64,000 nt of DNA, from contig CBDCOX010000002.1 in assembly GCA_965219995.1 (NCBI GenBank), forward strand, positions 224,001-288,000. The letters run 5' to 3'. Below are positions 14,464-46,235 of this stretch, one piece after another. Within the stretch, counting starts at the first letter, position 1, and each line of letters begins with the position of its first letter. Made by a program: the position numbers and the translations under genes. The DNA is from Candidatus Latescibacterota bacterium. Lineage in GTDB: Bacteria > Latescibacterota > UBA2968 > GCA-2709665. The notes below the pieces were generated by a model. It searched no databases. It worked only from the letters and a program-made list of their open reading frames with translations, and was not told the origin of the DNA.

Positions 14464-14495
14464 GCCGCGGCGCCGCCGGGAAGGTCGATGGCACG

Positions 14496-16250
14496 ATGAC
14501 GGAAATAGACCCGATCACGCGTGAGATCATGCAGAATGCACTGGCTGCGGCCGCCGACGAAATGAGCGCCGCGCTGTATCGCACGGCCTATTCCACCATC
14601 GTGCGCGACTGCCTGGACTACTCCACGTCGCTGTGCAGTGCGGATGGCCAGATGATCGCGCAGGGCGTCACGATACCACTGCATCTGGGATCTGTCCCGT
14701 ATGCTCTGAATGCGCTGCTCGAGCGGTTCGGCGATGACATCAACCCCGGCGACGTGTTCATCCTGAACGATCCGTTCGACGGCGGGATGCACATTCCGGA
14801 CATCTTTATCGTACAACCGGTCTTCTGGAACGGTGAGCGGGTGGCTTTTGCGGTGAGTACGGCGCACCATCTGGATCTGGGCGGACGCCTTCCCGGCAGT
14901 TCCGCCTGCGACAACACGGAGATCTTTCAGGAAGGGTTTCGCATTCCGTGGCTGAAGCTCTATCGCCGGGGCGAGCCCGACGAGTCCATATTTTCCCTGA
15001 TCCGTGCGAACGTGCGCGTGCCCCAGATGACGATCGGGGATATCAGGGCGCAGTTGGCGGCCTGCCATATGGGGGAACGGGCGGTGCATGCGCTGATCGA
15101 GCGGTACGGATCCGGGACGTTTCTGGCGTGCGCGCAGGATCTGATCGACTATACGGAACGGCTGGTTCGTGCGGAGATTGCTTCGTGGCCCGATGGCTCC
15201 CATACCTTTACCGATTTCCTGGACAGCGACGGGGTGGGCGGGCCCAGGGTGCGGATCCGGGTGACCGTAACCGTGCGGGGAGACTCGCTCACGGCCGATT
15301 TCACGGGGACGGACCCCCAGGTTCGCGGCGCCGTCAACAGTACGCTCTCGTTTACCGCGGCCGTCGTGGCCCTTTGCGTGCGCGCCGTAATGCGGGAGGA
15401 GATTCCGAATACGGAAGGGATGTTCCGGCCGCTGGAGATCATCGCGCCCGAGGGTACGCTCGTGAACGTGAGGATGCCGGGCGCGTCGTCGATGCGCGGC
15501 GTGACCGGGTTCCGGATGACGGACGTCGTGTTCGGGGCGCTGGCCGGGCTGCTGCCCGACCGTGTGCCGGCCGCCGGCGAAGGCGGCAACACGCTGGTCA
15601 TCATCGGCGGACAGCGGCAGGACCGGTCGCCTTACGTCTATTATGAGTTGCTCTCCGGGACATGGGGGGCGCGGCCGGACAGGGACGGAAACGACGGACT
15701 GTGCAATCCGGCCAACGTGGCCAGCAATATACCCGTTGAACAGGCCGAATGCGAATATCCCGTGAGAATCGACCGGTACGGACTGGTCCGCGACAGCGGC
15801 GGTGCGGGCAAGTACCGGGGCGGATTGGCGATCGAGCGGGAGTGGACGCTGCTTTCGGGAGAAGCGCATCTGGCAATCCGGTCCGATCGACGAGACCATC
15901 TGCCCTACGGATTGTGCGGGGGCCAACCGGCGACGGGGTCGACAAACGTGCTCTATGACAGCGACGGCGGCGAGGAGTTGCCGACGATGATTTCGACGAC
16001 GATGGGGGCCGGAGAGCGGATCTACCACCGGCAGGCGGGCGGCGGGGGATGGGGAAATCCGATGGAACGGGACCCGGGGGCGGTCGCGCGGGACGTGAAA
16101 AACGGGAAGGTGTCGGTGGACCGGGCGCGGGAGCAGTACGGCGTGGTGATCGAAAGCGGGACGCTGGCGGTCAACGAGACGGAAACAGGGAAGGCGCGGC
16201 GGAGGATGGCGCCGCCCGGTACCGTGTCCGAAGGCGGCGACGTGGGTTGA
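14496..16250 (+). CDS. Hydantoinase B / oxoprolinase family subunit
   Basis: DPITREI, RTAYS, NDPFDGGMHIPD, HHLDLGG, DSGGAGKYRGG, GGGGWGNP. Confidence 0.93.
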   Translation: MTEIDPITREIMQNALAAAADEMSAALYRTAYSTIVRDCLDYSTSLCSADGQMIAQGVTIPLHLGSVPYALNALLERFGDDINPGDVFILNDPFDGGMHIPDIFIVQPVFWNGERVAFAVSTAHHLDLGGRLPGSSACDNTEIFQEGFRIPWLKLYRRGEPDESIFSLIRANVRVPQMTIGDIRAQLAACHMGERAVHALIERYGSGTFLACAQDLIDYTERLVRAEIASWPDGSHTFTDFLDSDGVGGPRVRIRVTVTVRGDSLTADFTGTDPQVRGAVNSTLSFTAAVVALCVRAVMREEIPNTEGMFRPLEIIAPEGTLVNVRMPGASSMRGVTGFRMTDVVFGALAGLLPDRVPAAGEGGNTLVIIGGQRQDRSPYVYYELLSGTWGARPDRDGNDGLCNPANVASNIPVEQAECEYPVRIDRYGLVRDSGGAGKYRGGLAIEREWTLLSGEAHLAIRSDRRDHLPYGLCGGQPATGSTNVLYDSDGGEELPTMISTTMGAGERIYHRQAGGGGWGNPMERDPGAVARDVKNGKVSVDRAREQYGVVIESGTLAVNETETGKARRRMAPPGTVSEGGDVG

Positions 16251-26892: not shown

Positions 26893-26920
26893 TTGACATC
26901 ATTCGGCCCTGCCGTATTAT
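26893..26920 (+). promoter_or_regulatory. Sigma70-type promoter of the methylamine cluster
   Basis: TTGACA-16 bp-TATTAT about 100 bp upstream of ATG 27019. Confidence 0.55.
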
Positions 26921-27018: not shown

Positions 27019-28389
27019 ATGGATACACCCGGAAATGACGTTTCCGGAAACGGCCGGACCGGCCGGAACCCGCAGGTTCTGGGCAGGAATTTCATGTTTC
27101 CGCCCCAGGTGATCGACGACATCCACATCAAGGCCAATCTGGGTCGGTACCGCATGCGCGGCATGGCGCTCTTCAAGCAGATTCCATCGTGGGACGACCT
27201 GACGTTTCTTCCCGGAACGCTCACGAGGTTCGTCATCGAGGGATACCGCGAGAAATGCGAGACGCGGACGGTGATCGGACCACGGGCCGAACGGCCGCTC
27301 GAGCTGGATATTCCCATATATATTACGGGCATGAGCTTCGGCGCGTTGTCCTACGAGGCGAAGGTGGCGCTGGCAAGAGGTGCCACCATGGCGGGTACCG
27401 CGACCTGTTCGGGAGAAGGCGGCATGCTGCCCGACGAGCGCCGGTATTCCGAGAAGTGGCTCTACCAGTGCATCCAGTCCCGCTACGGGTTCAACCCGCA
27501 CCACATGCGTCTCGCCGACGGCGTGGAGTTCTTTATCGGACAGGGATGCAAGGTGGGCCTCGGCGGACATCTGATGGGCCAGAAGGTGACGGACCAGGTG
27601 GCCGAAATGCGTTCGCTGCCCGCGGGGATCGACCAGCGGTCGCCGGCGAGGCACCCGGACTGGCTCGGCCCCGATGACCTTGCCCTGAAGATCGAAGAGA
27701 TCCGCGAGGCGACCGACTGGCAGTTGCCCATTCAATTGAAACTCGGCGCGGCCCGGGTCTACGACGACGTGCGGATGGCGGCGAAGACGGGGCCCGACAG
27801 CATCTATATGGACGGGATGGAGGGCTCGACCGGGGCGGGGCCCCACCTTGCCACCGAGGAGACGGGCGTGCCGGGGATCGCGGCCATACGGCAGGCCAGA
27901 AAGGCGCTGGATGACGTGGGCAAGACCGGGGAGATCACGCTCGTATACGCGGGCGGGATTCGCAACGGAGCCGACGTTGCCAAGGCGCTTGCGCTCGGCG
28001 CCGACGTGGTGGCCATCGGCACGGCGGCGATGGTGGCGCTGAATTGCAACAAGGATATCCCCGAGGCGGACTACGAGGGCACGGTAGGCGTACCAGCGGG
28101 GCAATGCTACCACTGCCATACAGGACTCTGTCCCGTGGGCGTGGCCACCCAGGATCCGGTATTGCGCAGCCGGCTGGACCCGGATGAGGCGGCCGAGCGG
28201 GTGTATAACTTCCTGCATACGCTTGCGATCGAATGCCAGATGTTCGCCAGGGCCTGCGGCAAGACCGATGTCCATTCCCTGGAGCCGGAGGATCTCGCCG
28301 CGCTCACCATGGAAGCCTCCGCCATGGCGGAGGTCCCCCTGGCCGGCACCCGATATACCGTCGGGCATCCCGAAATGAACAGGTATTGA
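27019..28389 (+). CDS. glxD: FMN-binding glutamate synthase family protein (N-methylglutamate synthase subunit C type)
   Basis: GMSFGALS, GEGGM, GQGCKVGLGGHLMGQKV, RSPARHPDWLGPDDL, AGGIRNGADVAKALALGA, CYHCHTGLCPVGVATQD. Confidence 0.85.
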   Translation: MDTPGNDVSGNGRTGRNPQVLGRNFMFPPQVIDDIHIKANLGRYRMRGMALFKQIPSWDDLTFLPGTLTRFVIEGYREKCETRTVIGPRAERPLELDIPIYITGMSFGALSYEAKVALARGATMAGTATCSGEGGMLPDERRYSEKWLYQCIQSRYGFNPHHMRLADGVEFFIGQGCKVGLGGHLMGQKVTDQVAEMRSLPAGIDQRSPARHPDWLGPDDLALKIEEIREATDWQLPIQLKLGAARVYDDVRMAAKTGPDSIYMDGMEGSTGAGPHLATEETGVPGIAAIRQARKALDDVGKTGEITLVYAGGIRNGADVAKALALGADVVAIGTAAMVALNCNKDIPEADYEGTVGVPAGQCYHCHTGLCPVGVATQDPVLRSRLDPDEAAERVYNFLHTLAIECQMFARACGKTDVHSLEPEDLAALTMEASAMAEVPLAGTRYTVGHPEMNRY

Positions 28390-28419
28390 ACGGCGGAAAG
28401 ACAGGAACAGGAGACGCCG

Positions 28420-28857
28420 ATGGACGAAGCCAAAGACGTGAACTACTACCTGAAATCCACGGGGCTGGACTCGGACCGGGAGAAGGAAATCGGACAGCAC
28501 ATCGGATACCGGTACGATGTGAACCTGCCGCCCCACTACGGGCTTCTGACGCCGTTCCTGGAGCGGTACATCGAGGTGATGGGGTGGAGGGACCTGAACT
28601 GGCTGGAAGACGTACATATGGGATACGAAGACGGAAAGCCGGCAGTATTCGACCGGAACATCAATGGCTGGGTGCTGGTTCCCGAAGATATGCCCCTGCC
28701 CGACAACCAGCAGGAACGTGACATGATTGCGCGGGAGTTGCTCGTCAAGTTTCAGATGTCCGCAAAACATCCGATGATGGAACTTGGAGATGCCTACGGC
28801 CTGAAGCTGGAAGCCGAAGACGGCGAGCATGGAGCAGTCTCAAACCCGGCAACCTGA
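28420..28857 (+). CDS. Hypothetical protein, 145 aa, soluble and acidic
   Basis: AGGAG RBS; tightly placed between glxD and the ACAD-like gene; no motif recognised. Confidence 0.75.
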   Translation: MDEAKDVNYYLKSTGLDSDREKEIGQHIGYRYDVNLPPHYGLLTPFLERYIEVMGWRDLNWLEDVHMGYEDGKPAVFDRNINGWVLVPEDMPLPDNQQERDMIARELLVKFQMSAKHPMMELGDAYGLKLEAEDGEHGAVSNPAT

Positions 28858-28873
28858 AAACCCGGGAGGCGCA

Positions 28874-30268
28874 ATGAGCAATACGAAGATGTGGGGCCCG
28901 GAGGCGTTCTGGGGTCTGGACTACGACTGGGATCCCCAATGGGTATTGACGCCCGGCCAAAAGGCGCTCCAGGAGAGACTGATCGACCTCTGCCGGACAA
29001 CGCTGCGGGACAACGCCGTAGAGAGCGATCGCAACCTCGTGTTTCCACGGGAAAACTTCGAGGCGCTGGCTTCGCTGGGCCTGCTTGGACTGAACGTGCC
29101 CCGGGAATGGGGAGGCCTGGGAGAAGACCACACGTGTACGGCGATGGTGGTGGAGACGATCGCGCGTTACGGGTGCGCCAGTACCGCGATGTGTTATACC
29201 ATGCACGTCGGGGCCGTGGCCGCCGCCATGTTCCGGGCGCACGACAACGCGACGCTTCAGGCCCTCATGAAGCGCCTCGACAGCGACGTGCTGGTGGGCA
29301 CGTTATCCTATTCGGACCCGGAGACGGGCTCCCATTTCTGGTACCCCATTTCTTCCGGGGCCGAACGGGTGGAAGGCGGCTGGAAGGTGCGAAAAAAGGC
29401 GTCGTGGACGACGTCCGCGGGTTTCGCCGACTGGTACATCGTGCAGACGACGAGCCCCGATTTCGCCGGTGATTATTCGAATCTTTCCTGCTTCCTCGTC
29501 ATGGCGGACGAGGTGAAAGCGGAACCGTCGCTGTGGGACGGCCTGGGTCTGCGCGGGAACCAGTCCGGCACATTGGAGGTCGACAACGTCACGATGCCGG
29601 AAAGCAGGCTGGTGGGGCCGGTGGGCGACGGGGCGAATTCGAATGACGAGACGGTGGATCCGTTCTTCCTGTTATGTTCATCGGCCTGCTGGAACGGGAT
29701 TTCTCTGGGGATGATCGACATCGCCAGGCGGCACACCACGGCGCGGCGACACGCCGACGTGGGGATGCGGGTGGCGGACTATCCGACAATCCAGGACTAC
29801 GTGGGCGAGGCCGTGATCGATACCAACACCTCCCGGTCCTTTGTGTACATGATGGCCCGTGCGATGGACGACGTCACGAATCAATGCGACTGGTCCATCC
29901 ACCGGGACCTCTCCTGCATGCCAAGGGCGGACGTGCTGCACTGGATGTGGCAGGTAAAGTTCACCGCGGCGAAGAACGTGGCAAACGTCTCCGACAAGAT
30001 GCTTCATGCCTGCGGCGGGACGGGGTACAAACCCGATCTGGGGATTGAACGGTACCTGCGCGACGGCAAGGCCGGCTGGGTGATGGGCCCCACGAACGAG
30101 GTCCTCCGCCAGTTTGTAGGGAAGAGCGTACTGTTGGGATTCGACTCGCTGGATTACTGGAACCAGTCGGTGAACGAGCGCCTGTTGAGGAACGAACTCA
30201 AGAAGATGGACGGCGAGACGAAGAAGGAACTCGCGCGTCAGCTTCTGGCTGAAACCGAAGACGGGTGA
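28874..30268 (+). CDS. Acyl-CoA dehydrogenase-fold flavoprotein
   Basis: GLLGLNVPREWGGLG, STAMCYTMH, YSDPETGS, KASWTTSAG, GLRGNQS, HACGGTGY, IERYLRD; GGAGG RBS before ATG 28874. Confidence 0.85.
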   Translation: MSNTKMWGPEAFWGLDYDWDPQWVLTPGQKALQERLIDLCRTTLRDNAVESDRNLVFPRENFEALASLGLLGLNVPREWGGLGEDHTCTAMVVETIARYGCASTAMCYTMHVGAVAAAMFRAHDNATLQALMKRLDSDVLVGTLSYSDPETGSHFWYPISSGAERVEGGWKVRKKASWTTSAGFADWYIVQTTSPDFAGDYSNLSCFLVMADEVKAEPSLWDGLGLRGNQSGTLEVDNVTMPESRLVGPVGDGANSNDETVDPFFLLCSSACWNGISLGMIDIARRHTTARRHADVGMRVADYPTIQDYVGEAVIDTNTSRSFVYMMARAMDDVTNQCDWSIHRDLSCMPRADVLHWMWQVKFTAAKNVANVSDKMLHACGGTGYKPDLGIERYLRDGKAGWVMGPTNEVLRQFVGKSVLLGFDSLDYWNQSVNERLLRNELKKMDGETKKELARQLLAETEDG

Positions 30269-32601
30269 TGCCTGCAGATGTCCAAATGACGGGGACGGGG
30301 TTGCTGAGGTGGATGCCGGGCAGGGAGCGCTATCGGGTGCCGGGCGGGGGGGCGATCGCCCTTGTGCTGTCGCCTGGCGACCGGCTGGCGGTTGTGGACG
30401 TGGAGGGGCGCCAGCGCTGCGAACTGGGTGTGTTCGGCCCGGATGGCAATGCCGATCCGTCCAGGCTGGGCGTCCGGGCCGATGGCCCGATGGAGGGTTT
30501 CACGTCCGCGCTCAGGCGGGGCGACGAAAGCGCCCAGGCGGCCGACGCGGCGCTTCGGCGGCGCGGCGTTGACCTTGCCCTGGCCACAGCGGTGCAGGTT
30601 TTCGGCGGAGAAACGGAAGCCGGCGCCGAAGCGTGCTTCGACGCCGCGGACGACGCCGTTTGCCTGATTGCTGCGCCGGGCGGGCCGATGAGGGTGGATG
30701 CCCAGAACCCTCCCACGGACCTCGATGTCGTGGTCAGGCGCTCGCGCGTTGCGGCGCCGGAACGCCCCCCGCTGCCTTCGCCTCTTGGTGACGTGCGCCT
30801 GGACCTGGAGGTGGAGAAGGCGTCGGCGATCGCTTACGAGGTAAAGGCCGGAGAGTTCATCCAGGTGATCGACGCCGCCGGCAGGCAGTGTTCCGATTTT
30901 CTGGCCTTCGACGCCAGGCAGTTGCAGCGGGGCATCGAGCGGGGGCTGGACGCGACCACGACGCGGACGCTCATGGGCACGGCCTATCCCGGCCCGGGAC
31001 TATTCTCGAGATTCTACGACCAGGATATGCAGCCGCTGGTCGAAGTCGTTCGGGATACGGTAGGCCGGCACGATACGTTTGCGCTTGCGTGCACCGCGAA
31101 ATATTACGAGGATATGGGTTACCCGGGCCACGTCAACTGTACGGACAACTTCAACGCGGCACTGGACCCGTATACGATTCAGTCCCGCCGCGGCTGGCCC
31201 GCGGTGAATTTTTTCTACAATACGAGAATAGACCTTAATAACGTCCTCTTCATGGATGAACCATGGTCTCGTCCGGGTGATTACGTGCTGCTGAAAGCCC
31301 TGACGGACCTGGTCTGCCTGTCGTCCGCGTGCCCGGACGATATCGATCCGGCCAACGGCTGGGAGCCAACGGAGATCCAGGTCCGCGTCTACCCGGAACG
31401 GTACCGGTTTTCCAGAGGAATTGCGCACCGGATGACGGCCGACGCCGAACCGAAGTTGACGAGGGAGACGGCCTTTCACCAGCGAACCTCGGCCCTGACT
31501 CGACATTTCGAGGAATACCGCGGTTTCTGGCTGCCGTCAGCCTACACGGGGACCGGCGCCGTCGAGGAATATTTCGCATGCCGCGAGGCCGCGGCGGTGA
31601 TGGACCTGTCCGCGCTTCGCAAGTTCGAGGTACTGGGCCCGGACGCCGAGGCATTGTTACAGCACACGATTACACGAGACGTTCGCAGGCTTTCGCCCGG
31701 GCAGGTGACGTATTCCGCCATGTGTTACGAAACCGGCGGCATGATGGACGACGGCACCCTGTTCCGGTTGGGCCCCGAGAATTTCCGTTGGATCTGCGGC
31801 GACGAATACGGCGGCGCGTGGCTGCGCGAACAGGCCGGTCGCCTTGGAATGCGGGCATGGGTCAGAAATTCGACCGATCAGCTCCACAATCTTGCCGTTC
31901 AGGGCCCCCGAAGCCGGGATATTCTGCGTGGGGTCATCTGGACGCCTCCGTCCCGCCCGTCCCTGGCCGAATTGGGCTGGTTCAAATTCACGGTGGGTCG
32001 AATCGGCGATGGAAGCGGAGCGGCGGTTGTGGTATCCAGGACCGGGTACACGGGAGAACTGGGCTATGAGGTGTGGTGCCATCCCAACGACGCATCCGCG
32101 GTCTGGGACGCAATCTGGGAATCGGGACAGCCGCATGGCCTGACCCCGTTGGGGCTGGAAGCCCTGGACATCCTTCGGATCGAGGCCGGTCTGGTTTTCG
32201 CCGGCTGCGAGTTCGACGATCAGACGGACCCGTTCGAGGCGGGTATCGGCTTCACCGTTCCGCTCAAGCGCAAGAAGGACGATTTCATCGGAAAAGAGGC
32301 GCTGATTCGAAGACGGTCCCATCCCCAGCGTGTGCTCGTGGGCCTGGAGTTGTCCGGGAACGAGCCCGCCGCCACGGGCGACGACGTCTACGTCGGGCGC
32401 GGACGCGTGGGCATGATTACCAGCGGCACCCGTTCACCCATTCTGGGCAGAAATATCGCGCTGTGCCGTCTGGCGACCGGGTACGCGGCGATCGGCGTGG
32501 ACGTGGAGGTGGGAAGGCTGGACGGACATCAGAAGCGGATCCCCGCCCGTGTGGTGCGGTTTCCGTTCTACGACCCGGAGAAGTCCCGGCCCCGTTCCTG
32601 A
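30265..32601 (+). CDS. tdm: DUF1989-GcvT fusion; trimethylamine N-oxide demethylase-like
   Basis: DUF1989 part (GRQCSDF, HDTFALAC-x-YYEDMGYPGHVNC, SSACPDD) fused to an aminomethyltransferase (DLSALRKFE, DDGT, SRTGYTGELGYE, RIEAGL, PFYDPEK); 778 aa. Confidence 0.85.
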   Translation: MMPADVQMTGTGLLRWMPGRERYRVPGGGAIALVLSPGDRLAVVDVEGRQRCELGVFGPDGNADPSRLGVRADGPMEGFTSALRRGDESAQAADAALRRRGVDLALATAVQVFGGETEAGAEACFDAADDAVCLIAAPGGPMRVDAQNPPTDLDVVVRRSRVAAPERPPLPSPLGDVRLDLEVEKASAIAYEVKAGEFIQVIDAAGRQCSDFLAFDARQLQRGIERGLDATTTRTLMGTAYPGPGLFSRFYDQDMQPLVEVVRDTVGRHDTFALACTAKYYEDMGYPGHVNCTDNFNAALDPYTIQSRRGWPAVNFFYNTRIDLNNVLFMDEPWSRPGDYVLLKALTDLVCLSSACPDDIDPANGWEPTEIQVRVYPERYRFSRGIAHRMTADAEPKLTRETAFHQRTSALTRHFEEYRGFWLPSAYTGTGAVEEYFACREAAAVMDLSALRKFEVLGPDAEALLQHTITRDVRRLSPGQVTYSAMCYETGGMMDDGTLFRLGPENFRWICGDEYGGAWLREQAGRLGMRAWVRNSTDQLHNLAVQGPRSRDILRGVIWTPPSRPSLAELGWFKFTVGRIGDGSGAAVVVSRTGYTGELGYEVWCHPNDASAVWDAIWESGQPHGLTPLGLEALDILRIEAGLVFAGCEFDDQTDPFEAGIGFTVPLKRKKDDFIGKEALIRRRSHPQRVLVGLELSGNEPAATGDDVYVGRGRVGMITSGTRSPILGRNIALCRLATGYAAIGVDVEVGRLDGHQKRIPARVVRFPFYDPEKSRPRS

Positions 32602-32719
32602 TCGATAAGCGAAATCTGAAACGCTTCAGAAGGAATTTCGGCGGCCCGGTTCACGGCGTCCGGACGTCCGGCGGCGGACTCGGCGAATCCCGCGCCGAGT
32701 CTGTTGAGAGGGTATCGGA

Positions 32720-33208
32720 ATGGCGTTCGACCCGATGGAACAACGGCGGATTATGGGCTGTTTCGCGACCGGCGTTACCGTCGTGACGACGGTTGCGGGC
32801 GGCCAGTCGCGGGGGATGACGGCCAATGCCGTGACCTCCCTGTCGCTGGATCCGCCCCTGGTCATGGTGGCCGTGGACAAAGGGGCGCAGATGCACGCCC
32901 ATCTGACCGGAAGCCGGCATTTTGCATTGAATATCCTCAGCGAGGATCAGGAAGCGCTTTCCGTGCAGTTCGCCAGGCCGGGGCCGAAGGACTTTTCGAA
33001 CGTGGCCTCGACCACGGGCAGGACTGGCTCGCCTGTCTTCGCGGAGACGCTGGGTCACGTGGAGTGTCTGCTGGTCGACGTACTTCGGACCGGCGACCAC
33101 GACATTTTCGTTGGTGAGATCGTGGCGGGCGATGCCGGTGAGGGTCGTCCGCTGCTGTTTTACCGGGGGAAGTACAGCCGGATGGTGGAAGTGTCCGTTC
33201 AGACCTGA
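32720..33208 (+). CDS. Flavin reductase (HpaC/RutF-like)
   Basis: FATGVTVVT, GMTANAVTSLSLDPPL, GDHDIFVGE, PLLFYRG. Confidence 0.92.
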   Translation: MAFDPMEQRRIMGCFATGVTVVTTVAGGQSRGMTANAVTSLSLDPPLVMVAVDKGAQMHAHLTGSRHFALNILSEDQEALSVQFARPGPKDFSNVASTTGRTGSPVFAETLGHVECLLVDVLRTGDHDIFVGEIVAGDAGEGRPLLFYRGKYSRMVEVSVQT

Positions 33209-33588: not shown

Positions 33589-33685
33589 AAGTTAGAAGAC
33601 CACACCGCAGCGAGACGGGATGAATCGTCGGCAAAATGGTGAGATATTTTCTGGACAGATCGCCAGTTTTGAAGGGAGGAATGGA

Positions 33686-35077
33686 ATGGATAACGAACTC
33701 AGCGCATTGACCGTCGTGTTTACGGAGTTCTATTACTGGATATGCATCGTTCTCATGTTCCTGATCCACGTCGGCTTCTGTCTGTATGAAGTCGGCGTTT
33801 CCAGGCGGAAGAATATGATGCACACCTTGATGAAGAACGCGATGTTGATTCCTCTGGTGACCATCACGTTCTATTTCTTCGGGTGGTGGATCTACTTTGC
33901 GGTCCAGAACGGGCCCGGGATCACGGGCGGGCTCATCAAGGCCGCCTGGGCGGAGCCGTGGAATGAACTGATGGGGACGCATATGGGCGGAAAGCCGCAC
34001 GGCGGCGGGTTGACGGGGGCCGATACGGCACTCTGGGCGCGGTTGAACGGCGTGTTCTGGGCGGCGTTTCTCCTGTTTTCGTGGACGGCGGGATCGATTC
34101 TTTCGGGGGCGGTCATCGAACGCATCCGATCCGGCGCGTTCTGGATTTTTGCGGTGCTGGTGGGTTCGGTCACGTGGGTGATCGATGCGGCCTGGGGATG
34201 GTCCGCGGACGGCTGGATGGTGCAGTTGCTGGGCTATCACGACGCGTACGCGTCCGGCGTGATCCACGCGATCAGCGGCGGTTCCGCGCTGGCGATACTT
34301 TATCACCTCGGGCCGCGCATCGGCAGGTTCAGGCCTGACGGCTCTCCGAGGAATTTCCCGCCGCAGAACACGTGGCTGGTCATCATCGGACTGTTTCTGA
34401 TCTATACCGGATTCTGGGGCTTCTACGCGGCCTGCAACGTTCCCATAATGGACATCGATGCCGCCGACGGCAGGGCGTTCTTCTCGGCCACCACGATTTA
34501 CCTCACACCCACGACGCTCAGCGCCATCACCTTCAACTTTCTGATGTCTCTCGCCGGCGGATTGATCATGGGGTACTTCGTGTCCAAAGGCGATCCGTAC
34601 TGGACCTTCTCGGGCGGACTGGCCGGCATCATTACGGCGTCGGCCGGCAACGACCTGTACCATCCGATGCAGGCGCTTCTCATCGGCGCATTCGGCACGT
34701 TCTGCATGTACAAGCTGCACAATTGGGTCGAACGCCGCTTCAGGATCGACGATGCGGTGGGCGCCGTGGCGGTGCACGGATACGCCGGGGTCATCGGCGT
34801 GATTGTCGCGGGGTTCGTGCTGTGGGGGTATCCGGGCGCGAATCCCGACTACGCCCCCATAACGCCCTGGGGCCAGACGCTCGGCGCCGTCATCATGTTC
34901 TTCGTGCTGGGTTTTCTGCCCTGTTACGTGGTGGGCGCGGTTCTCAAGAAACTGGGCGTTCTCCGCATTCCGGGGCGAATCGAACTGGCGGGTCTGGATC
35001 ACGCGACCATCGAGAACGAAACGTCGGCTGCGAACGAACTCGTTCAGGCGGAAGTCGACGAAGCGCGGGGAAAATGA
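33686..35077 (+). CDS. amt: Ammonium transporter (Amt) family, methylamine-cluster type
   Basis: IHVGFCLYEVG, SGAVIERIR, GVIH and IDDAVGAVAVHG twin-His motifs; multiple TM helices; GGAGG RBS. Confidence 0.9.
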   Translation: MDNELSALTVVFTEFYYWICIVLMFLIHVGFCLYEVGVSRRKNMMHTLMKNAMLIPLVTITFYFFGWWIYFAVQNGPGITGGLIKAAWAEPWNELMGTHMGGKPHGGGLTGADTALWARLNGVFWAAFLLFSWTAGSILSGAVIERIRSGAFWIFAVLVGSVTWVIDAAWGWSADGWMVQLLGYHDAYASGVIHAISGGSALAILYHLGPRIGRFRPDGSPRNFPPQNTWLVIIGLFLIYTGFWGFYAACNVPIMDIDAADGRAFFSATTIYLTPTTLSAITFNFLMSLAGGLIMGYFVSKGDPYWTFSGGLAGIITASAGNDLYHPMQALLIGAFGTFCMYKLHNWVERRFRIDDAVGAVAVHGYAGVIGVIVAGFVLWGYPGANPDYAPITPWGQTLGAVIMFFVLGFLPCYVVGAVLKKLGVLRIPGRIELAGLDHATIENETSAANELVQAEVDEARGK

Positions 35078-35086
35078 AGGGTAGCG

Positions 35087-36772
35087 ATGCGCGAGCAGGG
35101 GAACTTGCCGGATATTGAAATCGCGAGGCGGGCCGATTTGCTTCAGGTCGGCGAGGTCGGTCGAAAGCTGGGCGTACCCGAAGATCAACTGGAGGTCTAC
35201 GGCAGGTACAAGGCCAAGGTTTCGTTGGGTTTTTGCGACAGCCTGGCCGGAAATCCCACCGGAAAACTGGTGCTGGTCTCGGCGATCAATCCGACACCCT
35301 CCGGCGAGGGAAAGACCACCACAACCGTGGGTCTGGGCGACGCGCTGAACCGGCTGGGCAAGCGCGCGGCCGTGTGTCTCCGGGAGCCCTCTCTGGGTCC
35401 CTGTTTCGGCATGAAGGGAGGCGCTGCCGGCGGCGGGGCCTCGCAGGTCGCGCCGATGGAGGACATCAACCTGCACTTTACGGGCGATATCCACGCCATC
35501 GGCGTCGCCCACAATCTGCTGGCCGCGGCAATCGACAACCACATTCATCACCGCAACAGGCTGGATATCGATCCCCGGCGCATCCTGTGGAAGCGCGCCC
35601 TGGATATGAACGACAGGGCGCTGCGCGATATCGTCATCGGTCTCGGGGGCACGGGGAATTCCTACCCTCGGGAATCCGGCTTTGAAATCACGGTCGCGTC
35701 CGAAGTGATGGCGATCTTCTGCCTGTCGGAGTCGCTCGACGAACTTCGTGAGCGGCTGGGTCGAATCATCGTGGCGCGTACACGGGCCAACGAGCCGGTC
35801 ACAGCGGCGGACCTCAACGTGCACGGGGCGATGGCCGTGCTGTTGAAGGACGCGTTAAAACCGAATCTGGTCCAGACGCTCGAGAACAACCCTGCGATCG
35901 TCCACGGGGGTCCGTTCGCCAATATCGCGCACGGATGCAACTCGGTGATCGCGACGAAACTGGCGATGCGTCTGGCCGAGTACACCGTTACAGAGGCCGG
36001 ATTCGGCGCGGACCTCGGCGCGGAGAAATTTCTGAACATCAAATGCCGCCAGGCCGGCATCCGCCCGGACGTGGTGGTGCTCGTGGCAACCGTCCGTGGC
36101 CTGAAATACCATGGAGGGACGTCGCTCAGGAGGCTGGCGGACCCGGATCCGGCCGCGGTCGAGAAAGGCCTCGTAAACCTCAGGAAGCATATTGAGAATG
36201 TCCGGCGCTTCGGGCTGCCGGCGGTGGTCGCCGTGAACCGGTTTCTTTCCGACACCACCGGTGAGGTCGCATTGATCCTGGACAGGTGCGCCGACATGGA
36301 TTTACCGATCGTTCCTTCGGAACACTGGGCCGGAGGAGGGGCTGGCGCCGAAGCGCTTGCCCGCACGGTGGTCGAAGCCGCGAAAACGGCGCCTGCCGAT
36401 TTCAACCTGTTGTATCCCGACAGCCTGCGGTTGTGGGACAAGGCCAGGATCGTGGCCCGGGAAATCTACGGCGCCGACGATATCCTGGGGGACAAACGCC
36501 TGAGAGCCCGGTTCGGAAAGCTCGAGGAAGCGGGGTACGGGAGGCTTCCGGTCTGTATGGCCAAGACCCAGTATTCGCTCTCGACCGATCCGGGACTGAA
36601 GGGCAGACCGAAAGGTTTCGACGTGCCCATCCGCGACGTGAGGGTGTCTGCCGGGGCCGGTTTTGTTGTCGTCTACACCGGCGACGTCATGACAATGCCG
36701 GGGCTGCCCCGAAAGCCATCGGCCGAAGCGATCGACTACGATGAAGCCGGACAGACCGTGGGACTGTTCTGA
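35087..36772 (+). CDS. fhs: Formate--tetrahydrofolate ligase
   Basis: [72 protein letters not shown]. Confidence 0.97.
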
Positions 36773-36909
36773 GAGCGGAGCCGCCACCGATGGTGTCCGC
36801 CGTCTCTGGTGAGCGCGACACCTTCGAAATCCGGCATCCGGACGCTTCGCTTCAGGTTCCGAATGAGACGAATGGTTTCAACATACTCACCAGCGTAAGG
36901 AGGTGGCAG

Positions 36910-37140
36910 ATGAGAACGGGTCAGATAGACACGTGGACGGGAAATCCGGCTGACGTGGGTCCCATGTATCCCTTTGTCGGGTACGAGGTCCCGCTGTTCG
37001 TGGTCTGCGTTGCGCTGTGGCTTGCGTACACGGTCTGGCAGATGAAACACGAGAACGCGGTCTATCAGGACGAACTGGATCGGTCCGCCGAGGCCGCGCC
37101 TTCCGTATCGGAAACGGAAGGTGAGGGCAGGGATTCCTAA
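36910..37140 (+). CDS. Small single-pass membrane protein, 76 aa
   Basis: GGAGG RBS; W...DVGPMYPFVG followed by a hydrophobic helix and WQMKHE. Confidence 0.7.
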   Translation: MRTGQIDTWTGNPADVGPMYPFVGYEVPLFVVCVALWLAYTVWQMKHENAVYQDELDRSAEAAPSVSETEGEGRDS

Positions 37141-37167: not shown

Positions 37168-38502
37168 ATGACGGTGGACCAGGTTAAGGAAGTTGTAGAG
37201 AGAAATGGAATAGACTTCTTTCTGTGTTCTTTCGTGGAAATGAGCGGAATGCCGAAGGCCAAGGTCGTGCCGGTCACGCACCTGGACGACATGGCATCGG
37301 AAGGCGCGGGGTTCGCGGGGTTCGCGGCGGGCAATATGGGGCAGGGGCCGCACGATTCCGACATGATGAACATACCGGATTTCCGTTCGATGACCGTGTT
37401 GCCGTGGCGAAAGAACACGGCGTGGGTGGCGGGCAATATCCAGGTCGAAGGGGAACCGTTCGGCTATTGTCCCCGGACGATTCTGCAGCGGCAGCTCGAG
37501 AAGGCGGAGGCAAAGGGATATCGGTTGAATCTGGGCGTGGAAGCGGAGTTCATCCTCCTGAAGAAGGACGATCAGGGCCAATATACGCTGGCCGATCCGA
37601 TGGACACGTTGGAAAAGCCCTGTTACGATCTCGTCACCCTGCATCGCAATCTGGATGTGATGACCACGCTCATCGGGTATATGCAGGAACTGGGATGGGA
37701 ACCCTACGCCAACGACCACGAAGACGCCAATTGCCAGTTCGAGATCAACTGGACCTATTCCGACGCGCTGACGACCGCGGACCGGCAGACGTTTTTCAGA
37801 TGGATGGTGAAAGTCAACGCGGAGCGTCACGGATACCACGCGACCTTCATGCCGAAACCGTTTTCTCATCTCACCGGGAGCGGGGCGCATTATCACATGA
37901 GCCTGTGGGATCCGGAAAACACGACCAATCTGTTCCTGGACGAGACGGACGAAAACGGCCTTTCGAAAGAGGCCTACTGGTTTATGGCGGGCATTCTCAA
38001 TCACGCCAAGGCGATTTCGGCCGTTTCGGCCCCTCTGGTGAACAGCTACAAGCGCCTGACGAGGGGCGCTCCCCGGTCCGGCGCGTCCTGGGCGCCGATC
38101 TGCATCACTTACGGCGGATCGAACCGGACGCAGATGGTCCGCATCCCGGACGCGGGGCGTATCGAGAATCGGGCGATCGACGGGGCGGCCAATCCATACC
38201 TGACGGCCGCGGTGATGCTGGCGGCGGGGCTCGACGGCATCGAAAACCGCATGGAGCCGGGCGAGCGCAACGAGGGCAATCTCTACGAGGTGTCCGAGAG
38301 CGAGTTGAAAGCGCGGGGCATCGATCTGCTGCCCGGTACCCTGGCCGAGGCGGCCGACCACCTGGCGTCCGACGACGTACTCCGGGAAGCGCTCGGAACG
38401 GAATATGCCGACTACTATGTGCAGGTGAAGCGCGAAGAGTGGGCGGAGTACCATTTGCACGTCGACCAGTGGGAGCGTGAACGCTATCTGCCGGTCTACT
38501 AG
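37168..38502 (+). CDS. glnT: Type III glutamine synthetase family (GlnT); probable gamma-glutamylmethylamide synthetase GmaS
   Basis: KAKVVP, GAGFAGFA, GVEAEF, NDHEDANCQFEIN, TFMPKPF, GSGAHYH, NSYKRL, NRTQMVRIP, ENRAIDGAANPYL; context with glxD and tdm. Confidence 0.85.
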   Translation: MTVDQVKEVVERNGIDFFLCSFVEMSGMPKAKVVPVTHLDDMASEGAGFAGFAAGNMGQGPHDSDMMNIPDFRSMTVLPWRKNTAWVAGNIQVEGEPFGYCPRTILQRQLEKAEAKGYRLNLGVEAEFILLKKDDQGQYTLADPMDTLEKPCYDLVTLHRNLDVMTTLIGYMQELGWEPYANDHEDANCQFEINWTYSDALTTADRQTFFRWMVKVNAERHGYHATFMPKPFSHLTGSGAHYHMSLWDPENTTNLFLDETDENGLSKEAYWFMAGILNHAKAISAVSAPLVNSYKRLTRGAPRSGASWAPICITYGGSNRTQMVRIPDAGRIENRAIDGAANPYLTAAVMLAAGLDGIENRMEPGERNEGNLYEVSESELKARGIDLLPGTLAEAADHLASDDVLREALGTEYADYYVQVKREEWAEYHLHVDQWERERYLPVY

Positions 38503-38598: not shown

Positions 38599-39942
38599 AT
38601 GGAGAATGCAGCTGAGCGGACGGTTCGGGAGGCGCCGCGGGGCTTAGGAGGACTGTTGCGGAATATCGGTCCGGGCGTGGTTGTGTCGGGGTCGGTGGTC
38701 GGATCCGGCGAGTTGCTGGTTACCACGCGAATGGGCGCCGAGGTGGGCTTCGTGTTCCTCTGGGGGGTGATCCTGGCCTGTCTGGTCAAGTTCTTCATCC
38801 AGCTTGAACTCGGGCGCCAGTGCGTTCTGCACAACAGTACGACGATACAGGTACTGGATCGCGTGCCCGGAATGCGGCTGGCGAATACGTCGTGGGCGGC
38901 ATGGTTGTGCGTGCTGGGATACTTCTCGGTAATGATCGCCGTGATCGGCATCCTGGGGTCGGTGGCCGGTCTGATGGTGACCCTCCTACCCGGTGTCCCG
39001 TACAACGTCTGGGCCGTTCTGGTTTTCGCGGCCATCTCGATCCTGTTGTACCGGGGTCTGTACGCCGACCTGGAACGCATGATCACCATACTGGTTGCGG
39101 GCTTCAGCCTGGTCGTCATCGGGTCCGTCGCGGCGATGCAGGCAACGCCCTACGCCGTGGGCGGCGACGAGGTATTGTCGGGGTTTCGCTTCGCGTTGCC
39201 GGCGGACGGGGCGTTCGTGGCCATGGCTGTGATGGGGTCGGTGGGTGCGACGGCGGTGGAGTTGTTTATGTATCCTTACTGGGTGAGGGAGAAAGGGTAT
39301 GCGGATTTCGTGGGGCCCCGTGAGGATACGCCCGAATGGCGCGCGCGCTATCGGGGCTGGATGCGGGTGCTGAAAACCGACGCGCTGGTCTGCACGGGAA
39401 TCGCATTGGTGATTACCTGCGCCTACTATCTGCTTGGCGCTTCGATTCTCAAGAAACTGAACGTGGTTCCCCAGGGCATGGAGGTCGTCGAGCAGGTATC
39501 GCTGATTTTTACCCGAAGCATCGGACCGTGGACCAAGAACGTGTTCATGTTCGGCGCTTTCTGTACGCTGTTTTCCACGCTGCTCGTCTTTACGGCCAGT
39601 TCGGGGCGCATCAGCGTGGATTTTCTGAGGCAGACGGGGGTCGCCAGTCTCGATCATGAAGGCGGCCGGCTTCGGCTGCTGAGGGCACTGCAGATCGCTT
39701 TTCCGTTTCTGTGGCTCTGTGTGACCATTGCAACTCCCGATACGCCGCTGGCCCTGGTGCTGATCGGGGCCAATGCCAATAACCTGCTGCTGATTCCGAT
39801 GGCCTACGGCGTGGTGCACCTGGCGATGCGCGCCGCGGACACGGAACGGATGTCCGTCTGGACGGAACTTGGATTGCTGCTGACGATCTGGGCGATCGTC
39901 AACTTTACCGCGATCAACCTTTATCTGAATTGGACGCGTTAG
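38599..39942 (+). CDS. Nramp-related (YcsG-like) secondary transporter
   Basis: IGPGVVVSGSVVGSGEL, GSVGAT, YPYW, TLFSTL; about 11 TM segments. Confidence 0.8.
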   Translation: MENAAERTVREAPRGLGGLLRNIGPGVVVSGSVVGSGELLVTTRMGAEVGFVFLWGVILACLVKFFIQLELGRQCVLHNSTTIQVLDRVPGMRLANTSWAAWLCVLGYFSVMIAVIGILGSVAGLMVTLLPGVPYNVWAVLVFAAISILLYRGLYADLERMITILVAGFSLVVIGSVAAMQATPYAVGGDEVLSGFRFALPADGAFVAMAVMGSVGATAVELFMYPYWVREKGYADFVGPREDTPEWRARYRGWMRVLKTDALVCTGIALVITCAYYLLGASILKKLNVVPQGMEVVEQVSLIFTRSIGPWTKNVFMFGAFCTLFSTLLVFTASSGRISVDFLRQTGVASLDHEGGRLRLLRALQIAFPFLWLCVTIATPDTPLALVLIGANANNLLLIPMAYGVVHLAMRAADTERMSVWTELGLLLTIWAIVNFTAINLYLNWTR

Positions 39943-44141: not shown

Positions 44142-46235
44142 TCAATCGACGTCGATCAGGAGATTGCCGTAGTCGTCCACGGTTACGGCACAATCGGGCG
44201 GAACAAGGGTTGTGGAGTCGATTTCCTCCACGATGGCGGGACCCGTGAAGCGGTTGTTCGCCTGAAGGCGGTACCGGTCGTAGATCGACGTGGGCGCCGG
44301 TTCGGTGGAACCCGGCATGCGGACGTCGCGTTTCGCCTTCAGGGCCGTGCGCGAGGATGGTCCGCCCTTGGGAACCTGCCGTCGGCTGGGGCGGGGCACG
44401 GCGCCCACGGCTGAGAGACGCGCGTTGACGATTTCGGTGGGCTCGTCCCGGGTTGCGAAACCGTACTGGCGCCGGTGGGCTGCGAAGAAGGCGTCGTTCA
44501 TCTTCCGGGGAAGGCTTTCCGACAATTGGGCAACGGGTACCCGAAGTTCGTAGGACTGGCCCAGATACCGCATATCGGCCTCGCGGACGAAGCGGATGTT
44601 GTCGCGGGTGACCCCCTCGCTCAGAAGCAAGCCGGTCGCATGGTCTTCAAACTCGCGGTAGATGGCCGTAAGTGCCGGCAGGTCCAAATCGTCCGTCTTC
44701 GAGATATAGGTGCGAACGTAGTCGTGGCGCAGGTCCGTAACGAGCAGTCCGAGCGCTGTGGTCACGCCCGGGCTGGGCGGTACGAGGACGGTGCGGATGT
44801 GCAGCGCCCTGGCAAGCGCGGCGGCATGGAGGGGGCCGGCGCCGCCGAAGGCCACCAGGACGAACGCGCGGGGGTCCACGCCTTTCTGGACCGACACGAG
44901 TTGGAGGATGCCCGTCATATTGGCATTGGCGATTTCAATCAGACCGGCCGCGGCCTCGTCGACGGCCATATTCAGTGGCCCTGCGATGCGCCGGTCGATT
45001 GCCAGTTCCGCGAGCGATCTGTCGAGGCGGAGTTCACCACCCAGAAAGTAACCGGGATCGAGCCGGTCGAGAACGAGGTTTGCGTCCGTCAGCGTGGGTT
45101 CCGACCCTCCCTTTCCGTAACAGGCGGGTCCAGGCGCCGCGCCCGCGGATTGCGGGCCCACGGCAAGCGCCCCGCCCGGATCAACGTGGCCGATGCTCCC
45201 GCCGCCGGACCCGATTTCAACCAGATCGATCACGGGCGTCTTTACGGGATAACCCTGACCCTTGTCGCGGGTCGTGGTTGCAACCGCCGCATCGCCGACC
45301 TCGAATTCGGCAGCCAGGCGCGGCCGGCCGTTTTCGATGAGCGCGGCCTTCGCGGTTGTGCCGCCAATGTCCAGCGCAATCAGATTTTCGTACCCGGCCA
45401 GCCGGCCCACGTACGAAGCCGCGATGACGCCCGCTGCCGGACCGGATTCGATGAGCTGTACGGGCTGCTGCCTGGCGGTCCCGGAGGCGATGATGCCGCC
45501 GCCGGAGGTCATCAGGAACAGGCCGGAACCCGGGTTTACCGCTCCGAGCCGGTCCTCCAGGCGTTCCACGTAGGCGCCCACCGCCGGAAGCAGCGCGGCG
45601 TTGACGGCCGTTGTGCTGGCGCGGGTATATTCGCGGTATTCGGGACAGATGTCGGAGGAGACGCAGACGGGCAGACCGGGACATGCGTCCCGGATGATCC
45701 CGGCGGCCCTCCGTTCGTGCGCCGGGTCCCGGTACGCGTGCAGGAAGCACACGAGAATCGCTTCCACCCCGTCCTCGGCCAGTCTACAGGCGGCACGGTA
45801 CACGGCGGCCTCGTCCAGGGGGACGAGCACCTCCCCATGGGCATCGATACGTTCGGGTACGCCAATGCACAGGTGGCGCGGAACGAGCGGAGGAGGTTTG
45901 TCGTAATCGAGGTCGTAGAGGTTGGGCCGAATCTGCCACGCGATCTCGAACAGATCACTGAAACCTTCGGAGGCGATGAGGCCGATCCGGGCGCCTTTTT
46001 GCTGGATGATCGTGTTGGTCGCCACGGTCGTACCGTGTACCACGAAGCCCACCTGCCGGGCCGTGAGCCCCTGGTTGTCGAGGCCGCGGGTATACGCTTC
46101 CATGAACGCCCGTGACGGATCGTCAGGAGTGGAGGATACCTTGACGGGGCGGAAGTCGCCCGTGTTCTCGTCCATCACCACGGCATCCGTAAACGTGCCG
46201 CCGATGTCGATGCCGATGCGGTATGAATCACTCAT
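44142..46235 (-). CDS. Hydantoinase A / oxoprolinase family subunit
   Basis: DIGGTFTD, HGTTVATN, ESGPAAG, GPQSAGAAPGPACYG; start MSDSY overlaps the stop of the B gene. Confidence 0.92.
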   Translation of the reverse strand: MSDSYRIGIDIGGTFTDAVVMDENTGDFRPVKVSSTPDDPSRAFMEAYTRGLDNQGLTARQVGFVVHGTTVATNTIIQQKGARIGLIASEGFSDLFEIAWQIRPNLYDLDYDKPPPLVPRHLCIGVPERIDAHGEVLVPLDEAAVYRAACRLAEDGVEAILVCFLHAYRDPAHERRAAGIIRDACPGLPVCVSSDICPEYREYTRASTTAVNAALLPAVGAYVERLEDRLGAVNPGSGLFLMTSGGGIIASGTARQQPVQLIESGPAAGVIAASYVGRLAGYENLIALDIGGTTAKAALIENGRPRLAAEFEVGDAAVATTTRDKGQGYPVKTPVIDLVEIGSGGGSIGHVDPGGALAVGPQSAGAAPGPACYGKGGSEPTLTDANLVLDRLDPGYFLGGELRLDRSLAELAIDRRIAGPLNMAVDEAAAGLIEIANANMTGILQLVSVQKGVDPRAFVLVAFGGAGPLHAAALARALHIRTVLVPPSPGVTTALGLLVTDLRHDYVRTYISKTDDLDLPALTAIYREFEDHATGLLLSEGVTRDNIRFVREADMRYLGQSYELRVPVAQLSESLPRKMNDAFFAAHRRQYGFATRDEPTEIVNARLSAVGAVPRPSRRQVPKGGPSSRTALKAKRDVRMPGSTEPAPTSIYDRYRLQANNRFTGPAIVEEIDSTTLVPPDCAVTVDDYGNLLIDVD

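Follow-up and report, generated by a model that had tools for sequence, protein, structure and literature searches.

A putative two-component trimethylamine oxygenase of the acyl-CoA dehydrogenase fold beside tdm, and an adjoining module marked by the orphan protein hyp145

The window analyzed here, a 64,000-nucleotide stretch of contig CBDCOX010000002.1 from a Candidatus Latescibacterota bacterium (positions 224,001 to 288,000 of the forward strand), contains a gene for a protein of the acyl-CoA dehydrogenase (ACAD) fold directly upstream of tdm, the gene for trimethylamine N-oxide (TMAO) demethylase, with a gene for an HpaC-type flavin reductase following tdm. With moderate confidence, we read the ACAD-fold protein and the reductase as a putative two-component (group D) trimethylamine (TMA) N-oxygenase that replaces the non-homologous enzyme Tmm, which is of the flavin-containing monooxygenase (FMO) type. 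Upstream of the ACAD gene lie a glxD-like gene and the small orphan gene hyp145. Two modules thus stand side by side, ACAD with reductase and glxD with hyp145, and not one trio. An earlier reading of the same DNA, made from the sequence only, had counted hyp145 as a part of the oxygenase, and this assignment fell, since hyp145 travels with a glxD paralogue and is missing from ACAD-positive genomes of Xanthobacter, Labrys, and an Armatimonadota metagenome-assembled genome (MAG). The enzyme belongs to a known class; what would be new is its function here and its taking the place of Tmm.

The ACAD-fold protein and its links to Tdm and Tmm

All three ACAD Pfam domains are present in the protein, which at the sequence level has the fold of group D enzymes and shares these domains with true ACADs. 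It differs from true ACADs at the Glu of the IYEGT motif, which we take to be the catalytic base in enzymes of the medium- and short-chain (MCAD/SCAD) type. In HMMER alignments, IYEGT of four solved ACADs (8i4p, 7w0j, 3pfd, and 2dvl) lines up with VMGPT of the query, and the Gly-Pro pair found there (G405 and P406) is invariant across 13 family members in an alignment averaging 83% identity. Because the catalytic Glu is replaced, by Gly, the protein is, as judged from its sequence, not an ordinary acyl-CoA dehydrogenase, and it reaches no curated cut-off for that class. Absence of the presumed base and a separate HpaC-type reductase encoded alongside are traits of group D enzymes, and both are found here; the partners of true ACADs are instead CoA ligases, hydratases, and electron-transfer flavoprotein (ETF). 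Relative to ACADs, the family has two conserved extras, some 45 added residues at the C-terminus and an insertion of about 16.

A search of NCBIfam gave 17 matches, all under cut-off. The top match, Rv1679_FadE16 (NF049984), scored 218.4 bits against an equivalog cut-off of 600, which places the protein outside the Rv1679/FadE16 family, and the models of group D oxygenases scored far under their cut-offs (SfnB, 69 bits; DszC, 65; HsaA, 62; HpaH, 50). The protein has no FMO-like domain (PF00743) and falls outside the Tmm family (NF058570). Our claim is that it probably works like Tmm, not that it belongs to the Tmm family.

Relatives were collected in one scan of 185,579 species genomes, which confirmed at least 574 of them. 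The locus counts in this report concern the best 80 of these relatives, 45 of which have full 10-kb flanks; they rest on tblastn with the proteins of the window and not on calls of open reading frames (ORFs), for which codon-position GC was the filter. A Tdm homologue is present in 51 of the 80 loci, less than 1 kb from the ACAD gene in 34 of the 51, and within 10 kb in 38 of the 45 loci with full flanks. A flavin reductase homologue is present in 48 of the 80 (31 of the 45), and in 24 of the 48 it lies less than 300 nt from the ACAD gene; four stretches with Tmm-type tdm clusters, taken from three genomes, gave no reductase match. Conservation of the block among relatives and in further phyla shows that the genes are not arranged this way by chance. 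The sequence-only reading had paired the ACAD-fold protein with the reductase beside tdm and had remarked that no CoA ligase or ETF gene was nearby. Both observations extend beyond the window: the linkage is kept across phyla, with the Glu replaced, and the gene maps show no CoA ligase or ETF gene in the conserved neighborhood.

Several gene orders recur. DmmDABC (PF22290, PF22289, and PF11927), which acts in the same pathway at the dimethylamine (DMA) step and is unrelated to any gene of the window, surrounds the ACAD-reductase-tdm group in three lineages: the order is dmmD-[ACAD-reductase-tdm]-dmmA-dmmB-dmmC in Xanthobacter and ACAD-tdm-dmmD-dmmABC in Labrys, with a reductase match between ACAD and tdm, and in the Armatimonadota MAG dmmABC is followed by ACAD and then by tdm. 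Latescibacterota and Acidobacteriota show the order glutamine synthetase (GS)-like, GATase, GXGXG, glxD, hyp145, ACAD, tdm, (reductase), DAO, amt, (fhs). The DAO/GS-like/GATase/GXGXG/glxD/hyp145 block that flanks ACAD-tdm in these two phyla also flanks tmm-tdm in three ACAD-less Alphaproteobacteria. In Dongiaceae/Rhodospirillales, a fatty-acid-desaturase-like gene, a HAL/PAL-type lyase gene, and a cold-shock-domain gene precede reductase and ACAD, and tdm is 3-10 kb off.

Whole-genome searches were made in 50 of the 80 genomes with ACAD and in 401 evenly sampled Alphaproteobacteria, with ACAD called at 67% identity or more and Tmm called by NF058570 above cut-off; the Fisher tests ignore kinship. 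All 50 ACAD-positive genomes have Tdm (E≤1e-100), 46 of them above cut-off. In the alphaproteobacterial sample, 9 of the 37 genomes with Tdm carry ACAD, as against none of the 364 without Tdm (p = 1.8e-10). The ACAD query gave 11 matches at E≤1e-80 across all 401; the nine at 67% or more are all in Tdm-positive genomes, and the other two (59-60%) are paralogues in Tdm-negative ones.

ACAD excludes FMO-type Tmm and has no association with DmmC. The 37 Tdm-positive Alphaproteobacteria divide into 19 with Tmm, 9 with ACAD, none with both, and 9 with neither (p = 3.9e-4, or 8e-4 without the center genome), and Tmm was found in 4 of the 50 ACAD-positive genomes versus 19 of 28 that are Tdm-positive and ACAD-negative (p = 4.8e-8). 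DmmC occurs in 11 of the 50; counting strong matches only, it is present in 2 of 9 ACAD-positive and 7 of 28 ACAD-negative genomes of the alphaproteobacterial sample (p = 1.0). Phylogenetic profiling, which had been suggested along with the sequence-only reading, therefore bears out the expected co-occurrence with tdm and anti-correlation with tmm but not an anti-correlation with dmm.

The assembly of the source genome (5.44 Mb in 2 contigs, 98.58% complete, 7.63% contamination) has no match anywhere to PF00743 (FMO), PF11927 (DmmC), or PF22289 (DmmA). The latter two families were both detected in other genomes, and 14 control genomes matched neither. DmmA, DmmB, and DmmC from related loci gave no tblastn matches in the assembly, and the DmmA (PF22289/PF22290) and DmmC (PF11927) domains that would mark DmmDABC are in neither window nor genome. 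The lack of tmm and dmmDABC, first noticed for the window, thus holds for the whole assembly as searched, and this genome does not show the combination that would have told against an amine oxygenase, namely, tmm and dmmABC elsewhere with the ACAD gene unlinked to amine genes. In the phylum as a whole, Tdm is present in 17 of 168 genomes and 4 of 49 genera, and for 7 of the 17 the contig coordinates coincide with those of genomes established as carrying ACAD but not Tmm.

The best 80 of the at least 574 relatives are 71-98% identical to the query (best tblastn segment) and come from at least six phyla: Latescibacterota, Gemmatimonadota, Acidobacteriota, Alphaproteobacteria (Xanthobacter, Labrys, Dongia, Zavarzinia, Virgifigura, and Devosia), Armatimonadota, Melainabacteria, and cyanobacterial MAGs. 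Many carriers are soil or sponge/coral bacteria. The clade is highly conserved, at 72-98% identity. In a FastTree phylogeny of 76 sequences, the ACADs of the loci and two fusion proteins (P0243 and P0244) form one clade with 100% local support, to the exclusion of four paralogues, and the interleaving of phyla on the tree points to horizontal transfer. The four paralogues are unlinked to tdm; three come from Tdm-lacking genomes or contexts, and one is a second copy in a Tdm-positive genome (G432). The plasmid collection yielded no homologue of ACAD or hyp145.

When longer proteins were searched, five of ACAD-Tdm fusion length (852-1286 aa) emerged, 61-64% identical to the ACAD-fold protein. 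P0243 (1220 aa) is clean, with the ACAD part, a linker of about 30 residues, and a Tdm part 60% identical to the Tdm of the window over 759 residues; P0246 has frameshift-like stretches, and all five fusions need not be real.

In the mechanism that we propose, the reductase would reduce free flavin mononucleotide or flavin adenine dinucleotide (FAD) with NAD(P)H. The ACAD-fold component would bind the reduced flavin and, with O2, form a flavin C4a-hydroperoxide that would pass oxygen to the nitrogen of trimethylamine, and the coupled Tdm would split the resulting TMAO into DMA and methylene-tetrahydrofolate (THF). We infer this substrate, product, and flavin chemistry for the ACAD-fold protein. 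A group D supply of TMAO to Tdm is suggested because the ACAD base is missing, the reductase partner goes with ACAD and was not found in the four stretches with Tmm-type clusters, ACAD depends strictly on Tdm in its distribution, Tmm is excluded, Dmm is not associated, and the same module flanks either tmm-tdm or ACAD-tdm.

The candidate would catalyze the same reaction as Tmm, TMA + O2 to TMAO. It occupies the same place beside tdm in methylated-amine clusters, with the same flanking module, and the distributions of the two are mutually exclusive. Tmm is a class B, single-component enzyme that uses FAD and NADPH. The candidate is non-homologous, with the ACAD fold, a separate reductase, and free reduced flavin in place of Tmm's bound FAD with NADPH. 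Among group D enzymes, isobutylamine N-hydroxylase, the sugar N-oxygenases/nitrososynthases, DszC, and the Acinetobacter dimethyl sulfoxide (DMSO) monooxygenase ACIAD0428 have an ACAD-like fold and HpaC-like partners and carry out N- or S-oxygenation by flavin hydroperoxide (PMC6165268, PMC13352529). The first of these counts N-hydroxylases in the group (PMC6165268), and the second reports oxidation of DMSO to DMSO2 by the Acinetobacter enzyme (PMC13352529). We propose the same chemistry for the candidate, which is only distantly similar to these enzymes and whose proposed substrate is neither a biosynthetic intermediate nor an aromatic compound but a small tertiary amine that is catabolized. 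A literature search, with subscription papers and supplements outside its scope, found no ACAD-fold or two-component TMA oxygenase beside tdm, and one on Xanthobacter and TMA, again outside subscription papers, found nothing useful. For four PDB codes, the same kind of search turned up no publication.

Several observations weigh against a TMA N-oxygenase. The closest solved proteins by sequence are true ACADs (E 1e-31 to 1e-25), whereas the scores of group D members are poorer (for HsaA, 5e-11 when the family profile is the query; for 3m9v/4kcf, 1e-12 to 1e-13), and the top NCBIfam family, Rv1679/FadE16, is uncharacterized. Of the 45 loci with full flanks, 14 gave no reductase match within 10 kb. 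Four genomes hold both Tmm and ACAD, and three of them carry tmm, ACAD, and tdm together in one locus (L040, L043, and L057); if the two oxygenases are redundant, a transitional or dual-cofactor explanation is needed, and these loci may be intermediates of displacement or may hold oxygenases that are not fully redundant. Both genes are lacking in 9 of the 37 Tdm-positive Alphaproteobacteria, so a TMAO source of the cell's own is not a strict requirement of Tdm. Kin are not independent, 7 of the 50 ACAD-positive genomes being Xanthobacter or Labrys. Finally, the 50-62% identical paralogues in Tdm-less genomes or contexts indicate that the fold alone does not fix the substrate.

These last points also bear on the possibility that the protein acts on another small amine or sulfur compound, on a precursor of TMA or TMAO, or on an acyl-thioester, its link to tdm reflecting a shared regulon only. 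Similarity to true ACADs, a list of NCBIfam matches in which a CoA-dependent desulfinase comes second, the paralogues without Tdm, and the Dongiaceae/Rhodospirillales loci, where the reductase-ACAD pair follows a HAL/PAL-type lyase and a desaturase-like gene with tdm several kilobases off, all agree with it. We nevertheless consider it unlikely, as the catalytic Glu is missing, the conserved neighborhood has no CoA ligase or ETF gene, and the co-occurrence with Tdm (50 of 50 genomes; 9 versus 0 of 364), the exclusion of Tmm, and the Tdm fusions are hard to explain by co-regulation alone.

The sequence-only reading had offered two substrates, TMA for an N-oxygenase or DMA for an N-demethylase. 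In the second case, the pair would replace DmmDABC by demethylating DMA to methylamine or by N-hydroxylating it. The genome of the window has Tdm and methylamine-handling genes without DmmA or DmmC; 39 of the 50 ACAD-positive genomes lack DmmC, as do the three whose Tmm, ACAD, and Tdm genes share a locus; and that ACAD co-occurs with Tdm and is fused to it would suit an enzyme acting on the product of Tdm as well as one supplying its substrate. Against this stand the lack of an ACAD-DmmC association, the strong exclusion of Tmm, in whose place ACAD is found, and the loci in which ACAD lies together with dmmA, dmmB, and dmmC (8 of 80; 9 of 80 for dmmA and dmmB). Moreover, DmmC or the hyp145 module, the latter being a better candidate for the DMA step, is already present in 48 of the 50 genomes with ACAD, and flavin hydroperoxide chemistry leads to N-oxygenation, not to direct N-demethylation. 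A DMA-directed enzyme is thus quite improbable in our judgment, and the choice falls on TMA.

A single N-oxygenase could also serve two steps, from TMA to TMAO and from DMA to dimethylhydroxylamine, with Tdm cleaving both products so that methyl groups are stripped successively. Such a cycle would suit the 36 of 50 ACAD-positive genomes with neither Tmm nor DmmC and the fact that ACAD was never seen without Tdm and is sometimes fused to it, and demethylation of TMAO would formally be the same reaction as cleavage of an N-hydroxy secondary amine. We rate it as very unlikely: Tdm would have to accept dimethylhydroxylamine, the lack of Dmm is already explained by the candidate hyp145 module in 37 of the 39 ACAD-positive genomes without DmmC, and genomes with ACAD, Tdm, and DmmDABC would not need it.

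Other genes recur around the ACAD gene and its paralogues. Upstream of the reductase-ACAD pair in L017, L028-L030, L032, L037, L040, L044, L049, and others, a desaturase-like gene was counted in 12, a HAL/PAL-type lyase in 9, and a cold-shock-domain gene in 13 of the 80 loci. Some lyases of the HAL/PAL family release trimethylamine from betaines such as ergothioneine; by analogy, the lyase near ACAD would feed the oxygenase with trimethylamine. A Liv/urea-type ABC transporter (Peripla_BP_6, two permeases, and two ATPases) directly adjoins ACAD in several Alphaproteobacteria (L015, L019, L026, L031, L033, L036, L063, and L090-L093), and it could take up the amine substrate. The paralogue clade (L086-L089, from G090, G440, G024, and G432; 50-62% identical) is without tdm nearby or in the genome. 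Its member in L086 is near a Liv-type ABC transporter, and those in L086 and L087 adjoin an M41-peptidase-like fragment and glycosyltransferases; these neighbors, together with a cupin and a sugar kinase, gave no hint to the substrate of the paralogues.

hyp145, a second type of glxD, and the dimethylamine gap

hyp145 matches nothing in Pfam or NCBIfam, and no usable match was found in the protein atlas. At E≤0.001, only 298 cluster representatives of 1.84 billion match it, many of them fragments and none an informative fused form; the protein is highly conserved, with 67 columns invariant among 19 sequences. Homologues are present in 24 of the 80 loci (17 of the 45 with full flanks). The glxD of the window, here called type 2, is likewise highly conserved, being 79-98% identical in 23 of the 80 loci, and a second copy (59% identical) is found elsewhere in the genome. 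hyp145 belongs with glxD and is not part of the oxygenase: where a locus has both genes, as 23 do, hyp145 follows glxD at a distance of at most 125 nt in 18. It was detected in 61 of 79 further Tdm-positive genomes. Within the sample of 401 Alphaproteobacteria, 26 of the 37 genomes with Tdm have it, as do 12 of the 364 without Tdm.

A role of hyp145 as third subunit or chaperone of the oxygenase deserves hardly any credence: although it ends 16 nt before the ACAD start in the window, two loci (L009 and L013) keep it 25-29 nt before ACAD with glxD 1.5-1.7 kb away and amt in between, and one congener has frameshifts in hyp145, ACAD, tdm, and amt with glxD intact, it is absent from three of five ACAD-positive genomes tested (G001, Xanthobacter; G002, Labrys; G043, the Armatimonadota MAG), lies on another contig or megabases from ACAD in Zavarzinia and Virgifigura (G003 and G005), went undetected in 11 of the 50 genomes with ACAD, and is present in 18 Tdm-positive Alphaproteobacteria that lack ACAD as well as in the 12 Tdm-negative ones.

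hyp145 marks an extra glutamate-synthase-like system that is nearly complementary to DmmC. Among 84 distinct Tdm-positive genomes, 59 have hyp145 without DmmC, 17 have DmmC without hyp145, 4 have both, and 4 have neither (Fisher p = 1.1e-10); in the alphaproteobacterial sample alone, with strong DmmC matches only, the complementarity persists (p = 3.5e-5). Three of the 21 DmmC-positive genomes are small genomes with weak PF11927 matches (E 1e-14 to 1e-16), and two of the four double positives are among these. Five DmmC-positive, hyp145-negative genomes have only a glxD 51-53% identical to that of the window, and five hyp145-positive genomes, one of them a 1.4-Mb SAR11-like genome, have a 79-87% identical glxD beside hyp145 plus a 53-57% identical one. 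As hyp145 genomes hold two glxD types, we rejected the notion that the hyp145-type glxD is the only N-methylglutamate synthase of its lineage.

The DAO/487-aa GS-like/GATase/GXGXG/glxD/hyp145 block is kept in the SAR11-like genome and in two others with tmm-tdm (L096, L098, and L099). In the genome of the window, a distance of 1.2 Mb separates the run from the GS-like, GATase, and GXGXG genes (C2:1455095-1458313), which stand beside a second complete glxBCD-like set with sox-like genes. The MgsABC subunit types are thus all present but split, with glxD in the window and GATase and GXGXG at C2:1455095-1456872, and the same genome holds the second complete set. The hyp145 module resembles the N-methylglutamate pathway (GmaS-MgsABC-MgdABCD) in its GS-like ligase, GATase, GXGXG, glxD-like FMN subunit, and sarcosine-oxidase-like DAO; it differs in being a second set that carries the familyless hyp145.

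Because its distribution is complementary to that of DmmDABC, the module may process dimethylamine. We propose tentatively, by analogy with GmaS/Mgs, that it does so by a gamma-glutamyl route, in which glxD and hyp145 would work with the 487-aa GS-like protein, GATase, and GXGXG, joined elsewhere by the product of a DAO-type (amine-oxidase-like) gene; dimethylamine would be ligated to glutamate and passed on, and the product would be demethylated. That both missing steps are carried out by undescribed enzymes, with a group D pair in place of Tmm and a gamma-glutamyl route in place of DmmDABC, is a more doubtful possibility. No paper on a gamma-glutamyl route for DMA was found in a search with subscription papers and supplements outside its scope.

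A further familyless gene, of about 196 aa, stands beside hyp145 or the reductase, often divergent from ACAD, in 16 of the 80 loci (L007, L010, L012, L021, L039, L043, L050, L051, L054, and others). It also occurs in the Tmm-type clusters L096, L098, and L099 and was not found in the genome of the window.

The gene run and its source

The features of the run are listed in Table 1. The order given by the sequence-only reading, glxD, hyp145, ACAD-fold, tdm, reductase, amt, fhs, and glnT, was confirmed in its ORFs and families.

Table 1. Coordinates of the gene run and of a promoter-like site in the window
Feature	Position	Strand	Match or remark
Sigma-70-like promoter match (TTGACA, 16 nt, TATTAT)	26893..26920	+	11/12 consensus positions, ~100 nt upstream of glxD
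glxD-like FMN subunit (glutamate-synthase central domain), type 2	27019..28389	+	PF01645, 305 bits
hyp145, 145 aa, small orphan protein	28420..28857	+	without Pfam/NCBIfam match
ACAD-fold protein, 464 aa	28874..30268 (ORF open from 28829)	+	PF02771, PF02770, PF00441
Tdm, TMAO demethylase (DUF1989 + GcvT)	30265..32601	+	NF053776, 1240 bits, cut-off 1100
HpaC-type NAD(P)H:flavin reductase, candidate reductase component	32720..33208	+	PF01613, 141.6 bits
Amt-family channel	33620..35077	+	PF00909, 192 bits; homologue in 13/80 loci
Formate-tetrahydrofolate ligase (fhs)	35087..36772	+	NF010030, 854 bits, cut-off 652
Type III glutamine synthetase (GlnT/GmaS type)	37168..38502	+	TIGR03105, 596 bits, cut-off 469.6

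A glxD-hyp145-ACAD-tdm transcript may begin at the promoter-like site, which is no more than a match to the consensus; 6 such sites were found in the region versus 4.0 expected from shuffles. For the ACAD gene, the ATG at 28874 is a more likely start than position 28829; GGGAGG precedes it, it follows the hyp145 stop by 16 nt, and the resulting 464 aa equal the length of homologues. The ACAD stop codon (TGA, 30266-30268) overlaps the GTG of tdm, with an in-frame ATG at 30268, an arrangement by which tdm appears to be translationally coupled to the ACAD gene. Tdm itself has the domains PF09347, PF01571, and PF08669 and, with DUF1989 plus GcvT and a score above 1100 bits, belongs to NF053776. 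The Amt-family channel possibly takes up ammonium or methylated amines, and the formate-THF ligase would deal with the one-carbon units that are passed to THF by Tdm.

Between fhs and the GS gene there is an ORF of 116 aa (36790-37140), kept in 7 of the 80 loci, all of them from Latescibacterota/Gemmatimonadota relatives. The ORF after the GS gene (38599-39942) matches an Nramp-family metal transporter in NCBIfam (105 bits, cut-off 50) and nothing in Pfam at E≤1e-5. The window also contains two hydantoinase/oxoprolinase A+B pairs, at 12364-16250 (+) and 44142-48088 (-), the former resembling caprolactamase subunits below cut-off.

The nearest named relatives of the source are Latescibacterota and Gemmatimonadota MAGs. 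Part or all of 27019-33208 is present in sponge, coral, and marine metagenome runs from 11 studies, and the organism is probably a sponge- or coral-associated bacterium. In three metatranscriptome runs from 2 studies (marine/sponge/coral), contigs with 90-99% likeness partly cover glxD, hyp145, tdm, amt, fhs, and the GS gene; coverage of ACAD is thin or missing in places, and these contigs as a whole indicate neither expression nor silence. Two congeners look Tdm-less. The contig of one ends inside the ACAD gene. In the other (L101; G498:C12:191000-208000), hyp145, ACAD, tdm, and amt are each in 2-6 frame-shifted pieces and the flanking glxD, reductase, fhs, and GS genes are intact, reflecting either joint decay of the block or a local assembly error.

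Meaning for methylated-amine turnover

TMA, TMAO, and DMA are major organic nitrogen and one-carbon compounds in the sea, in soils, and in animal hosts, and climate-active aerosols form from them as precursors. The gene counted in surveys of aerobic TMA oxidation is tmm, and FMO-type Tmm is still given as the pathway's enzyme in a paper of 2026 (PMC13390433). If the ACAD-fold protein and its reductase are a TMA N-oxygenase, tmm-based surveys miss the carriers of this type, at least 574 species genomes, and TMA oxidation may be undercounted; in the alphaproteobacterial sample, the ACAD type accounts for 9 of the 28 Tdm-positive genomes with a recognizable candidate for the first step.

For the DMA step, a 2017 paper describes dmmDABC as absent from all SAR11, calls this a "metabolic bottleneck," and regards the step as lacking in SAR11 and many other bacteria (PMC5520151). 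The complementarity of hyp145 and DmmC offers a concrete, testable candidate for this step. If the proposed reading of the hyp145 module is true, the DMA bottleneck of marine bacteria would be removed, since the module is also found in SAR11-like and other Tmm-type, Dmm-less genomes.

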